Positions 503-9,169 of a DNA stretch of 64,000 nt are shown piece after piece. The stretch comes from a virus (lineage: Duplodnaviria; Caudoviricetes): the IMG/VR virus record IMGVR_UViG_3300043104_000334; one strand, given 5' to 3'. The position numbers and the translations under genes are program-made. Each line of letters starts with the position of its first letter. Position 1 is the stretch's first letter. The notes beneath the pieces were generated by a model. It had not been told where the DNA came from and made no database searches. It worked only from the letters and a program-made list of their open reading frames with translations.

Positions 503-1492
503 TTATTTAATTTTTGTATCTGCTTTTTGCGCCGCACGAATCAAAGGATTATCTGAACCCTTAACCTTTGATTCTTCAACATTGACCTTGTGACTTTCTG
601 CCAACTGTCTTGTAAGAAGCTGACCGCCAGCTTCCCAGATACCGAGTGGGTCGTCAGGTTTCTCACTGTATTCAATAACAGGTTCAGAAATATCGGTGTC
701 ACCGAGAATATAATCTGTAAGGTTCTCTTTCTTTACCCATGGCGATACACATCGTAGCAGGTAAAGAAGCATTGGAGCAAGAGCCTTATAATTGTTAATT
801 GCCCCATTATATGCAACATGGTTCCTGTTATATCCATAGTATGTATTATTACCATGAGTATCCTCTATACACAGGTATGCATACCGGCTATCCCTGTCTG
901 TATCCAGATCAACACTCGGAAATTGTGTCTCAATACCCTGCATAAGTTTACGCACGAATTCACCATCAATTCTACCCAGTCGCGAAAGCTCATAAATCTT
1001 ATACGTATTTAACCGGTATTGATCAACAGCATCTTCACTGACTTTCCATAAGACCGGTATAGCGGAATTGTTTGGTCCACTGACAAATGGCACATAAAGC
1101 GTTGATAGTACCGTGAAACTTATATCCTTGACATCAATATAGTCTGACACGAACATACTGAATACCGTCATCCCATAACATTCATAGCCGTCAGGAGTTA
1201 GGTCGTGCTCATCAAAATCCTCTACGATATTACCATGCTCAAAGTAAAACACAAGAAGTGAAGAATCGGTCTTACTCTTTGCTAATACACAAACCGGTCC
1301 TCTAAACTTATCACTGTCATAGTATTTTACATTGCCACCCATGGTAAGTGCGCCATGCAGCTTCCCTACACCAAAAAGTTGTCTTATAACAACATTGGAA
1401 CCTTTGAACTTACCCCAGGCAAGTGTGTTATCCGGAGTAAAATGATTTACCTTTAAATCAGGTATTCCACGTAAAGCAATTTCCATATCCAT
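503..1492 (-). CDS. Hypothetical protein, paralog of 1513..2673, with C-terminal PLIRAAQKADT motif
   Basis: Shared blocks GIPxLxVNHxTPD, LYVP..GP, QFPxVDLDT, GYNRNHVAYNG; GGAGG RBS. Confidence 0.85.
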   Translation of the reverse strand: MDMEIALRGIPDLKVNHFTPDNTLAWGKFKGSNVVIRQLFGVGKLHGALTMGGNVKYYDSDKFRGPVCVLAKSKTDSSLLVFYFEHGNIVEDFDEHDLTPDGYECYGMTVFSMFVSDYIDVKDISFTVLSTLYVPFVSGPNNSAIPVLWKVSEDAVDQYRLNTYKIYELSRLGRIDGEFVRKLMQGIETQFPSVDLDTDRDSRYAYLCIEDTHGNNTYYGYNRNHVAYNGAINNYKALAPMLLYLLRCVSPWVKKENLTDYILGDTDISEPVIEYSEKPDDPLGIWEAGGQLLTRQLAESHKVNVEESKVKGSDNPLIRAAQKADTKIK

Positions 1493-1512
1493 ATTCTTTT
1501 ACCTCCATGCTA

Positions 1513-2673
1513 TTATTTTATCTTCACATCTGCTTTCTCAGCCGCTCTAATTAATGGGTTAGCTGAACCCTTCCTGTAAAACTCTTCATACTTTGGTACA
1601 TCTGTTGATAACTTGATATTGTCAGTAAAGCCGAGCGGATTTAAAGGCTTCATGTTATCACCCGCATACCAGATAACAATCTGTGACGCACTGATCTTTC
1701 CACAAATGTAATCAAGTATATTTGTATCAACCAGCTTCTGACCGGCACCAGTAATCCCAGTAAGAATAATAGGCATGATTGCTTTGTAGTCCTCAACTGT
1801 TCCGTTATAAGCAACATGGTTCCGATTATACCCAAAGAATGTATACTCATTGACTTCACCAATTACTGATATCCAACTATACCGCTGTTCAGTGTCGAGG
1901 TCAACAGCCGGAAACTGTTTCTCAATAAATCCCATCAGCTCATGTACGTACTCATCTGTAATTCGCAGGTCATTTAGCATATCTGCAATCTTGCAGGTAT
2001 CAAGCTGGCAAGCACCGACGGCCGTTCTACTCACATTCCAAAGGATTGGAATAATTGAATCTCTCGGGCCCTTAGCGCACGGTACATAAAGGTCAACTGC
2101 TGTTTCAAGCATAGCCTGTAAATAAGTCTTAGTCGGAACATCAAAAGAGAACATACCGATATACTCATAACCGCTTGGTACAAGATTTGTATACTGGATT
2201 TCACTAACAATCCAATCCGGCTCAAATCCAAACGCCAGAATTGTAGCATCATCGATATTACGAACGATTACGTAGACCGGACCTGCATGCTGTGAAATGT
2301 ACTTGTTTACCGTGCCTGTTGTTTTATCCATAAAGTCTGGTACAGGGATGTCTGAAATCTTCTTGATAATAACCTTTGAGCCCTCGTACTGTCCCCATGC
2401 GATAGTATCATCCGGCGTATAATGGTTAACAACTAATCCCGGTATACCAAGTAAAACAACATCTAAATCCATATTTTTGTTTCCTCCTTTTAATTTGTTC
2501 CAATCCTTAATGGGAACCTTTTTCAAATCGTCGAGTATCATATCGCATACCTTGTCATCCTCGAACTCTTTAGGATTTTCAAAGAATGCGCTCCAGTATG
2601 TCCTTATATAGGACATATCAGCATCAGTGAGATACACCTTGAGAACATTTTGCAGTTCATCAATTTTGTTCAT
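1513..2673 (-). CDS. Hypothetical protein, paralog of 503..1492, with a 67-aa N-terminal extension and C-terminal PLIRAAEKAD motif
   Basis: Paralogy starts at internal Met68 (position 2472), which has its own AAAGGAGG RBS. Confidence 0.85.
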   Translation of the reverse strand: MNKIDELQNVLKVYLTDADMSYIRTYWSAFFENPKEFEDDKVCDMILDDLKKVPIKDWNKLKGGNKNMDLDVVLLGIPGLVVNHYTPDDTIAWGQYEGSKVIIKKISDIPVPDFMDKTTGTVNKYISQHAGPVYVIVRNIDDATILAFGFEPDWIVSEIQYTNLVPSGYEYIGMFSFDVPTKTYLQAMLETAVDLYVPCAKGPRDSIIPILWNVSRTAVGACQLDTCKIADMLNDLRITDEYVHELMGFIEKQFPAVDLDTEQRYSWISVIGEVNEYTFFGYNRNHVAYNGTVEDYKAIMPIILTGITGAGQKLVDTNILDYICGKISASQIVIWYAGDNMKPLNPLGFTDNIKLSTDVPKYEEFYRKGSANPLIRAAEKADVKIK

Positions 2674-2682
2674 TTAGCCCTC

Positions 2683-7200: not shown

Positions 7201-8013
7201 TTAGATATTAGCCTCAAAGAGTTTGTACAAATCCTCGTTAGGTAATGCAAATACAACTTTTTTGTAAAGCTTGCCATAAGACTGCAATGTCTTAGCAAAC
7301 ACTTTTGCAACAAACTCCGGATTGTTTCTAAATACACCACATCCCCATGCGCCGAGGATTAGGGTATCACATCCGTTAAGGTAGGGTAGCGTCACTATCG
7401 CTTCAATACGATTCGTAATAGCAAGATCAACATATCTCGCTTTCGATATTGGTACCCTATTACAATTTGGTGCCGCACACGATATCACATCAAACAACAC
7501 TGGTGCTGTAATGCTACCTCTCGCCATTGTAAACGGGACAGCTGGACTGTAAATTACTTCATCTAGATATGTCTCCGGCATATCCTTTCTCTTTGCACGA
7601 GCCTTGTAAATAATCATTGAATCCAAGATAGGATACAATCCCGACACATGACAAAGTGATTCTTCCTGCGCATAGGAACCTTTTAAGAACCCACCACCCG
7701 GCTTAAAATAGGATGCGAAATTGAGTACACAGATTTGTCTGTCTCCCTCACCATAACAATCTAACGCTACCTCATATGTTGGCTTTCTTATAAACGAGAT
7801 GTGCGTCTTGTCAGGAACAGAATCCGCTTTTGTGTCTATATACTTCCACTCATCCTCTGTAATAAGCTGACCGATTCTAGCAAAGGATTTCTCTTTTGAG
7901 TTCTCAATTGCTGCTCTAAATACAGCATGATTGTTTATCATACCCAACCATACTTCAGCTTGTTTTGCATTATCTTCTTTCTTAGACATTTCATGTCTCC
8001 TTTTAAATTTCAT
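7201..8013 (-). CDS. TIGR02452/DUF2263 macrodomain, bacterial PARG-like ADP-ribose glycohydrolase (likely start 7989)
   Basis: VLNFAS..KPGGGFL.GS.AQEESLC, SCAAP, LILGAWGCGVF.N.P signature. Confidence 0.92.
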   Translation of the reverse strand: MKFKRRHEMSKKEDNAKQAEVWLGMINNHAVFRAAIENSKEKSFARIGQLITEDEWKYIDTKADSVPDKTHISFIRKPTYEVALDCYGEGDRQICVLNFASYFKPGGGFLKGSYAQEESLCHVSGLYPILDSMIIYKARAKRKDMPETYLDEVIYSPAVPFTMARGSITAPVLFDVISCAAPNCNRVPISKARYVDLAITNRIEAIVTLPYLNGCDTLILGAWGCGVFRNNPEFVAKVFAKTLQSYGKLYKKVVFALPNEDLYKLFEANI

Positions 8014-8545
8014 TTTTATTGACCCATTCTACCGGGCACGAACAGTTTCCATAATACCAGTGCAGGAACATATTTCTATCAGTAACATAATCTATTTTAC
8101 CCTGTTTATACAACAATTGCAATGCTGCTAGAGCCCTAGCATTACAAACTGGAGTCTTGTCCGGATTATGAAATAAATCATAAAAGGAACCCTGACTCAA
8201 GGCATAATCAATTTGTTTTTCACTGAGACTAGTAAGGTACAATAAATCATGACACCCCATCGGCAAGTAATCTTTGTAAGGAGAATCATCGAGTAATTTC
8301 CATATGTCTCTCATTGGATTACCTTTTGAATCTTTTACATAACATGTAGCTAGGTTTCTTGCCTGATAGATACCAGATGCAGACGATACATCTATACACG
8401 GTTCCATAAATGAGAGCACAGAACTCTCAATCTCTTTCCTGCATAATATTTTGCTTACCTCAAGAGCATCCTTATCCCATTGTACATCAACTGTTCTTGT
8501 ATAAAGCTGATTATTCTTTATGAAATAAATACATCTCTTAGCCAT
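8003..8545 (-). CDS. Divergent DUF6977-like / DarT1-associated NADAR antitoxin-like protein
   Basis: MAKR..YF..V.V.W, IDVSSAS, HDLLYL.SL, FYDLFHNPDK...CNARA echo the family pattern MA.RP.F, EISSKS, YDWLY..AL, FTDIEFNP.KS.NCQAR (recalled, not searched). Confidence 0.55.
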   Translation of the reverse strand: MAKRCIYFIKNNQLYTRTVDVQWDKDALEVSKILCRKEIESSVLSFMEPCIDVSSASGIYQARNLATCYVKDSKGNPMRDIWKLLDDSPYKDYLPMGCHDLLYLTSLSEKQIDYALSQGSFYDLFHNPDKTPVCNARALAALQLLYKQGKIDYVTDRNMFLHWYYGNCSCPVEWVNKNEI

Positions 8546-8560
8546 ACGTAACGTTGCCTC

Positions 8561-9169
8561 TTACTTTGTGGCAACTTTCTTCGCGGCATCAATAAGAGGA
8601 GAACTCTTCTTCCTTTTCTTTGGAATGTCGATTACATCCTGATACTGTATACCGTTATCATCACAAATCTTTTTAAGGAATTCATTAAGCTCGGCACCGA
8701 TTATCTTCTGCATCTTATTATTGCTAGGTAGGCCAATAGGCAAGTTAATGTGCTCCGCCATATCAATTAAGGATTTTACGAACTCCGATACTACAATTGA
8801 GAAATCCTCGTTAGCACTATAAGAGCTCGCAAGACATACCTTAATAAGCTTAACGAGTTCCGGATGGACATTGATTGTTTTCGTAACAGCACCATCCGCT
8901 ACGATATTGATTGTTGCGTTACCGGGCTCAAGCTTAAACCCTTTCACGCCATCAATAATGTCCCAGATTAATGGCTGTTGTCCCAATTTACTCTTCCCTT
9001 TTACGGTACTCAGTTTTACTTTATGTTCACCGATGTTAACCGCACCAAAGTAAGGCGGGTAAGAACCTGCCATGTTAAACAGTTCCTGATTCCTGCTTTG
9101 ATTTGCAATAACAACCTCGTCCACAATATCATGACCTGTTGAACCCTCAGGAAAACTTTTAATCTTCAT
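8561..9169 (-). CDS. Hypothetical protein with C-terminal PLIDAAKKVATK motif
   Basis: 202-aa ORF with RBS; C-terminal peptide resembles those of the 503 and 1513 proteins. Confidence 0.75.
   Translation of the reverse strand: MKIKSFPEGSTGHDIVDEVVIANQSRNQELFNMAGSYPPYFGAVNIGEHKVKLSTVKGKSKLGQQPLIWDIIDGVKGFKLEPGNATINIVADGAVTKTINVHPELVKLIKVCLASSYSANEDFSIVVSEFVKSLIDMAEHINLPIGLPSNNKMQKIIGAELNEFLKKICDDNGIQYQDVIDIPKKRKKSSPLIDAAKKVATK

Follow-up and report, generated by a model that had tools for sequence, protein, structure and literature searches.

Introduction

Portable address peptides are known for bacterial microcompartments, encapsulins, phage heads and secretion systems; no such peptide is known to have been described for giant plasmid-like elements, and few natural cases serve either end of a protein with the same sequence. 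Here, we analyzed a tag of about 12 residues that recurs at the ends of proteins encoded by IMG/VR record IMGVR_UViG_3300043104_000334 (Duplodnaviria; Caudoviricetes). The analysis covered a stretch of 64 kilobases (kb), called the window below, whose long open reading frames (ORFs) are all on the minus strand. In total, the window contains 15 copies of the tag on six unrelated protein families, 12 N-terminal (N-type) and three C-terminal (C-type). The initial annotation had counted 13 copies and at least four families; several copies and several families are indeed present, and both of its counts were too low. No description of the tag peptide, of 'LLxAA' or of such elements was found in a literature search.

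PMC4594438 describes microcompartment encapsulation peptides as a short helix at either terminus that acts as an independent module next to a poorly conserved linker. In logic these are the nearest analogues of the tag, and encapsulin targeting peptides are also close. The tag resembles the microcompartment peptides (N-terminal in PduP, PduD and EutC, C-terminal in CcmN and a class II aldolase) in being a terminal helix on unrelated cargo and in the poorly conserved linker between peptide and folded domain. Those peptides have about 18 residues, share a hydrophobic pattern only and go with bacterial microcompartment (BMC) shell genes, whereas the tag has about 12 residues, is conserved in sequence and is Ala-rich. 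Microcompartment peptides are strongly amphipathic, unlike the tag, whose sequence is conserved over six families with a hydrophobic moment of 0.21-0.45. CcmN, a known carrier, is a hexapeptide-repeat protein, as is the array of tagged proteins described here.

The capsid-targeting leaders of phage T4 internal proteins are short, exclusively N-terminal and removed by the prohead protease. The tag is like them in that unrelated proteins of a single element, which evolve fast, have a short leader in common, and unlike them in its three C-terminal copies, in the lack of a visible cleavage motif and in the lack of head genes found in the window.

Encapsulin targeting peptides, according to PMC11664910, are conserved, comprise 10-20 residues at protein termini and load unrelated cargo; the tag shares with them a short conserved terminal peptide on unrelated proteins. 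Family 1 peptides are almost always C-terminal with an adjacent shell gene, whereas no encapsulin family was seen among the 62 window proteins scanned. Translocation signals of type IV systems, according to PMC10025392, are usually C-terminal without a consensus, or are large internal domains. Like these, the tag is a candidate terminal signal on soluble proteins of a conjugative-type element, and a VirB4-like ATPase lies beside the tagged array; unlike them, it is a defined 12-residue helix, mostly N-terminal, and no coupling protein was seen among the window proteins. The tag is filed under none of these known families.

Tag copies and the proteins that carry them

The tagged proteins, referred to below by their first coordinate, are encoded as follows.

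503-1492, minus strand: 329-residue orphan protein with a globular core, a low-confidence linker of about 50 residues and the C-terminal tag ...SDNPLIRAAQKADTKIK; tag core encoded at 512-553
1513-2673, minus strand: 386-residue protein, paralogous to 503, that has an additional module at its N-terminus; C-terminal tag ...SANPLIRAAEKADVKIK, with its core encoded at 1522-1563
8561-9169, minus strand: 202-residue orphan protein of a different family, with a basic linker followed by the C-terminal tag ...KKRKKSSPLIDAAKKVATK; tag core at 8564-8605
12956-13333, minus strand: 125-residue ORFan with the N-terminus MSEELLKAAQSV; probable weak N-type tag encoded at 13289-13330
14629-14967, minus strand: protein whose likely start, the Met at 14965-14967, is directly followed by an N-type tag (M-VETLVSAAGVIAPK) encoded at 14923-14964
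31780-43394, minus strand: array of YdcK-type beta-solenoid paralogs and one unrelated 330-residue protein (31780-32772)

As the initial annotation had reported, the same peptide stands at the extreme C-termini of the 503, 1513 and 8561 proteins, whose ends read ...GSDNPLIRAAQKADTKIK, ...GSANPLIRAAEKADVKIK and ...KKSSPLIDAAKKVATK, respectively. The first two are paralogs with 40% identity. The 8561 protein is unrelated to them, also in agreement with the annotation: in a profile-profile comparison of the 503 family (alignment A1) with the 8561 family (alignment A2), the 15-residue tail alone aligned. More than 22 kb from these ORFs, ten proteins in or beside the array begin with the N-type tag ...N-x-L-L-x-A-A-G-K-[VIA]-D-T..., for example ...LLRAAGKVDTNK and ...LLDAAGKIDTTK. 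The array proteins match YdcK-repeat and hexapeptide families of Pfam, and their match to YdcK in PDB (2f9c) has an E-value of 3e-17. Two of the 12 beta-solenoid genes of the array (31043-31657 and 35993-36697, minus strand) do not carry the tag, which is therefore not an obligatory part of that domain family.

The fifteenth copy, which the initial annotation does not list, was found by a six-frame matrix scan in the 14629 protein, where it scored 17.4 bits immediately after the Met. The ORF listed at 14629-15036 (minus strand) probably starts too far upstream. The Met at 14965-14967 is the likely true start because a protein begun there carries an N-type tag and agrees at its start with the orthologs from four related 20-kb loci retrieved by a metagenome search (L001-L004), which begin with M, one or two residues and EEL[LIM]RA[AV].

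Enrichment of the tag at protein ends

A matrix of 14 columns was trained only on the ten N-terminal copies of the array region and submitted against the 67 minus-strand ORF proteins of the window (20,241 residues). Altogether, the matrix scans covered the window (about a third of the element), the four 20-kb relatives, shuffled sequences and two unrelated elements. Directly below the training copies, the matrix ranked the 503 protein with 17.1 bits and the 1513 protein with 15.8 bits, both 2 residues from the C-terminus, and the 8561 protein with 11.7 bits, 0 residues from the C-terminus. The alignment of the C-terminal peptides with the array N-termini, claimed earlier, is borne out by this result, as a matrix built from the array alone places all three above every other non-training match. 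The 12956 protein was the fourth non-training match (8.4 bits at position 2), and all top four were terminal, whereas the best internal matches in window proteins reached 8.3 and 7.4 bits.

Shuffling the 55 non-array proteins 2000 times gave an expectation of 0.0945 matches of at least 11.7 bits per set anywhere, and of 0.0035 within 4 residues of an end, where 3 were observed. The Poisson probability of at least two independent terminal matches, counted for the two independent families, is 6e-6. For matches of at least 8.4 bits, the expectation was 0.52 anywhere and 0.025 at an end, so that the 12956 copy is weak on score alone; with the combined matrix it reached 13.5 bits. A homolog search with this protein returned only itself. 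The weaker N-terminal copy that the initial annotation had placed here is probably a genuine tag.

In the six-frame scan, all 18 rows of at least 7 bits were in coding-strand frames. Real-protein controls came from two unrelated mobile elements, one a gut Bacillota phage and the other a Chryseobacterium plasmid (20,460 residues in 69 ORF proteins); the maximum was 9.7 bits, and every top match listed was internal. In the four related loci, the combined matrix produced eight matches of at least 14.6 bits, all terminal, and six rows at 8-10 bits, all internal. Additionally, in three two-module array proteins, the internal junctions scored -5.7, -10.4 and -7.9 bits versus 30-40 bits for N-terminal copies; beta-solenoid modules at an internal position of a fusion have thus lost the tag in 3 of 3 cases. 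In the window and its relatives, compared with shuffles and the two unrelated elements, positional statistics of the kind suggested in the initial annotation show matches far commoner at protein ends than inside proteins. The N-terminal stretch of the PARG protein (7201-8013) looks tag-like by eye and was rejected as a copy, as it scored below 7 bits and is not kept in relatives.

Selection on the tag

In ten sequences of the 503 family with 26-43% identity, N-P-L-I-R-A-A is invariant, including N315, L317, R319, A320 and A321, while the roughly 50 residues preceding the tail vary freely. The nine tag codons of six genes from the window and L001-L004 differ by 56 synonymous versus 16 non-synonymous pair differences, and the seven core tag residues are identical in these six genes. 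The tag codons of the 1513 gene likewise differ synonymously from those of the 503 gene. In the 8561 family, P-L-[IL]-x-A-A was retained in seven of nine members, degenerate in one and lost in one. These comparisons show purifying selection on the tag at the protein level, not at the DNA level.

The DNA of C-type and N-type tags has 15-23 of 42 bases in common and few codons in common. Recent DNA duplication as the source of the tags is ruled out by the differing codons, and a feature of the messenger RNA (mRNA) or of translation start is ruled out by the dissimilar tag DNA together with the three copies at gene 3' ends. The C-terminal copies therefore mark the conserved feature as a protein signal. 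A double-glycine leader for a C39 peptidase was also rejected, because its hydrophobic residues would have to be spaced differently and because a leader cannot stand at a C-terminus; one weak Pfam match to Peptidase_C39_2 occurs in the window.

Anatomy of the tag

The shared pattern consists of an N-cap residue, L, L/I, x, A, A, x, K/R, V/A/I, D/A and T, and the similarity between N-type and C-type tags spans about 12 residues, including D-T at positions +8 and +9. C-type tags have Pro directly before the first Leu in both unrelated families, whereas N-type tags never have Pro at this place and most of them have Gly after Ala-Ala. We infer that Pro and Gly are placed to cap the helix on the tether side, whichever end carries it. 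The C-type cores are followed by 0-11 residues and the N-type cores preceded by 1-12 residues; it is therefore not a free terminus that is being read.

Structure models of the 503 and 8561 proteins were generated with AlphaFold2 and family alignments. The 503 model has a core at residues 1-262, a predicted local distance difference test (pLDDT) score below 50 at 276-323 and a helix at 316-324. In the 8561 model, the core extends to around residue 180 and is followed by a basic stretch of low confidence (181-187) and a helix (191-200). The linker comprises about 50 variable residues in the 503 family and 4-10 residues in the array and in the 8561 protein. Besides the hydrophobic moment of 0.21-0.45 given above, the tags have a net charge of -1 to +2, and none of 12 tags contains an aromatic residue. 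No conserved cleavage motif was seen by eye beside the tags in the array N-termini or in the 503 and 8561 family alignments.

The first 63 residues of the 8561 protein are also modelled with low confidence, yet G12, D14, I15, D17, V20, N23 and other positions there are invariant across the family. This segment may serve as another conserved site of binding.

Parallel change between related loci

At tag position +7, all 15 tags of the window have V, A, I or C and none has Gly. The same position is Gly in three of three tags in each of L002, L003 and L004 (one N-type and two C-type families), and in L001 one of three tags has Gly and two have Ala. Three unrelated families have thus changed the same tag position in parallel, which is the outcome predicted by co-evolution with one receptor.

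The 503 superfamily

The 503-family profile retrieved 107 representatives among 1.84 billion proteins. Of 45 representatives of at least 250 residues with the Y-N-R-N-H core, 28 carry [LIM][LIMV]-x-A-[AVT] in the last 30 residues, 4-18 residues from the end; 24 of the 28 have Asn at -2, and 16 have Pro at -1. The same motif has three internal matches in 15,246 residues, which corresponds to a 105-fold terminal enrichment. The remaining 17 of the 45 have related but different tails. On this distribution, the C-terminal helix is old within the superfamily and extends far beyond this element.

The C-tagged proteins themselves have no Pfam, NCBIfam or PADLOC family, and 57 members of the superfamily gave no usable Pfam match and no PHROGs family. 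The 503 model had no Foldseek match at an E-value of 0.001 or lower (best VIA Z, 5.3), and the 503 family had no usable Atlas match. In tblastn searches, neither the four superfamily members submitted against phages nor the one submitted against plasmids gave a match. Scans of viral contigs (queries: the 503 and 8561 proteins, alignment A3 and the DnaB alignment A5) and of genome contigs (alignments A2 and A5) yielded no relative. Longer members of the family, such as the 1513 protein, have an N-terminal module of about 60 residues with the pattern ..LTD....YI..YW.AF..P..F.DD.., and the same module is found in many stand-alone proteins of 54-140 residues in the representative library (P0080-P0124).

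Genomic context

The array is flanked by giant membrane proteins and by a VirB4-like ATPase, and an AAA ATPase lies further upstream in the same gene series.

28866-30974, minus strand: VirB4-like conjugation/secretion ATPase just downstream of the array; Pfam P-loop_TraG, 2.9e-7
61241-62125, minus strand: 294-residue classical AAA ATPase, Cdc48/VCP D2-like and IetA-like; Pfam AAA, 6.7e-22

None of the 28 proteins with a membrane-like segment is tagged, versus 14 of the 39 without such a segment (P = 1.7e-4). Five tagged genes (503, 1513, 8561, 12956 and 14629) share a module with DnaB, RNase H and a DnaG-type zinc finger; the other families of the window include PARG, GGDEF and wall hydrolases. 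A Pfam search of the 62 window proteins detected no capsid, encapsulin, portal, terminase or prohead protease family, no shell family, whether BMC shell (Pfam BMC, EutN/CcmL) or other, and no head or scaffold family.

The 61241-62125 ATPase matches VCP-like and Cdc48 proteins in PDB at 1e-27 to 1e-25 and IetA in PADLOC at 1.4e-39. It also matched the NCBIfam IteA anti-phage ATPase model below the cut-off, and an IetS-like protease partner was not noted alongside. The gene at 7201-8013 (minus strand) encodes a microbial PARG domain (8.5e-25), and another window gene encodes a NADAR domain protein. Both enzymes process ADP-ribose and belong to types that counter ADP-ribosylating defences; neither PARG nor NADAR is tagged. 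In L003 (12280-13470) and L004 (12281-13471), an extra gene for a 396-residue protein lies between the PARG-like gene and a small gene for 86 residues; neither L002 nor the window has it there.

Short contigs from metatranscriptome libraries, made in four studies of animal guts, have at least 99% identity to parts of 503-9169, including 503-760. With their uncovered stretches and possible DNA carry-over, these matches show that the element was present in those libraries, not that it was transcribed.

Discussion

We propose that the tag would act as a portable docking helix that soluble proteins of the element carry at their free end, be it the N- or the C-terminus. A single receptor encoded by the element would read the helix itself and not a free amino or carboxyl group; the C-terminal copies imply the same, namely that the helix and not the terminus is read. 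The side facing the cargo would be insulated, the C-type helix starting with Asn-Pro after the linker and the N-type helix usually being stopped by Gly before the linker. On the terminal enrichment, the codon pattern and the parallel change at position +7, a single receptor for a position-independent docking helix is highly probable.

The receptor, in turn, might belong to or feed the VirB4-type envelope-spanning machine flanking the tagged array, and the tagged proteins might be recruited for export or for transfer along with the DNA. A VirB4-type machine is favoured because giant membrane proteins and VirB4 lie on the two sides of the array and because only soluble proteins are tagged. The proposal as a whole, with a transfer or secretion machine as receptor, is offered tentatively, as a possible but not a probable reading. 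A narrower version, in which the 12-residue helix is the sorting code of the element itself and selects about a third of the soluble proteins for the VirB4-type machine, namely the diversifying beta-solenoid array and several replication-module proteins, strikes us as rather doubtful.

Several observations weigh against the docking proposal or its link to the transfer machine. No receptor for the tag was found, and no coupling protein of the VirD4 type is present among the 62 window proteins by Pfam. The VirB4 link is one of gene position only, and the matches of VirB4-type NCBIfam models to 28866-30974 (2e-11 to 2.4e-4) all fall short of the curated cut-offs. Of the 15 tags, 12 are N-terminal, whereas the type IV signals described in PMC10025392 are mostly C-terminal and without consensus. 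PARG and NADAR would be plausible early cargo and are not tagged, and the five tagged proteins of the replication module fit an intracellular hub equally well. Furthermore, the modelled terminal helices are in low-confidence regions (pLDDT 27-56) and deserve modest weight. L002-L004 are close relatives, so the parallel change amounts to one lineage event per family, and the matrix scan covered about a third of the element. The initial annotation had read the peptide as a signal that points to an element-wide protein-targeting system; the either-end placement, the selection and the co-variation of N-type and C-type copies support this in part, while the analysis turned up no receptor, no compartment, no cleavage site and no secretion event.

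Among the alternatives, the tag could load proteins into a shell, a particle or a condensate, with the helix binding the shell or scaffold and the tagged proteins enclosed, in the way of the microcompartment and encapsulin peptides or of the capsid-targeting leaders of large phages. The architecture matches that of microcompartment encapsulation peptides, and the tag shows use at either end, a linker and many unrelated soluble cargo proteins. This explanation is nevertheless unlikely: in the window, about a third of the element, the Pfam search of 62 proteins detected none of the shell, encapsulin, capsid, portal, terminase and prohead protease families listed above; what microcompartment peptides of different cargo families have in common is physical character and not the sequence, which is conserved here; and the tags are not accompanied by a conserved cleavage motif visible by eye.

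We also consider it improbable that the tag is a short linear motif that binds a hub without transport, tethering accessory proteins to one central machine of the element such as its replisome, helicase, RNA polymerase or partition ATPase. Hub motifs such as clamp-binding motifs, which bind one pocket, typically occur on unrelated proteins and at either terminus, and the tag is like the latter in being short, in occurring at either end and in its flexible tethers on unrelated proteins. One third of the tagged genes (5 of 15) are in the module with DnaB, RNase H and the DnaG-type zinc finger, and the helix on 28 of 45 representatives of the 503 superfamily suits a partner common to many elements. 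However, ten fast-diverging beta-solenoid paralogs in the cluster of the envelope machine would be odd clients of a replisome, and neither a clamp nor another hub was identified in the window. To our knowledge, the tag does not resemble the clamp-binding consensus, and unlike clamp-binding motifs it has many clients in the envelope-machine cluster.

A recognition tag for an unfoldase or protease, either the Cdc48/IetA-like AAA ATPase (61241-62125) or a host AAA+ protease, which would engage the exposed tags on their flexible linkers for unfolding, remodelling or timed degradation, appears very unlikely. AAA+ machines start from either protein end, the tag is absent at internal junctions, and the series of genes that runs along the strand includes, upstream, one for a classical-clade AAA ATPase. 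Nevertheless, the tag runs in the same N-to-C direction at both ends, with 0-11 (C-type) or 1-12 (N-type) residues beyond it, so that the end itself is not what is read; nothing ties this ATPase to the tag, and it resembles a defence-system ATPase.

Hardly more can be said for an amphipathic helix that targets membranes by lipid binding, a role that helices at either end of several division and cytoskeleton proteins play in bacteria, and we regard it as very improbable. What would fit is that the helix is terminal, follows or precedes a linker at either end and marks soluble proteins exclusively; beta-solenoid proteins of the bactofilin-like kind use N-terminal membrane anchors, and weak bactofilin matches below the cut-off were obtained with Pfam. 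The composition speaks against it, as such helices have a high hydrophobic moment, bulky or aromatic residues and a basic face, unlike the moment, charge and lack of aromatic residues listed above. The invariance of Asn, Leu and Ala-Ala and the parallel change to Gly point to a shaped protein pocket and not to a lipid surface.

Finally, that there is no shared function, only family-specific helices resembling the array leader by chance or by helical-end composition, is barely credible: the core is short and rich in the common Leu, Ala and Lys, the score by itself does not make the 12956 copy significant, and the old tail of the 503 superfamily could have a partner of its own, but three terminal matches were observed against the 0.0035 expected, the similarity extends over about 12 residues with D-T at +8/+9, the families changed in parallel, and the real-protein controls gave no terminal top match (9.7 bits at most, the listed top matches being internal).

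The docking helix would be usable as a bait or reporter tag for finding its receptor, and a compact tag that works at either end may be useful for engineering. If the narrower, sorting-code version is true, the lineage-specific variants of the tag would mark matched pairs of tag and receptor, and a payload of proteins would travel with the DNA of the element, in the manner of a virion but without a capsid. The receptor would reveal what the element does with a large part of its soluble proteome.

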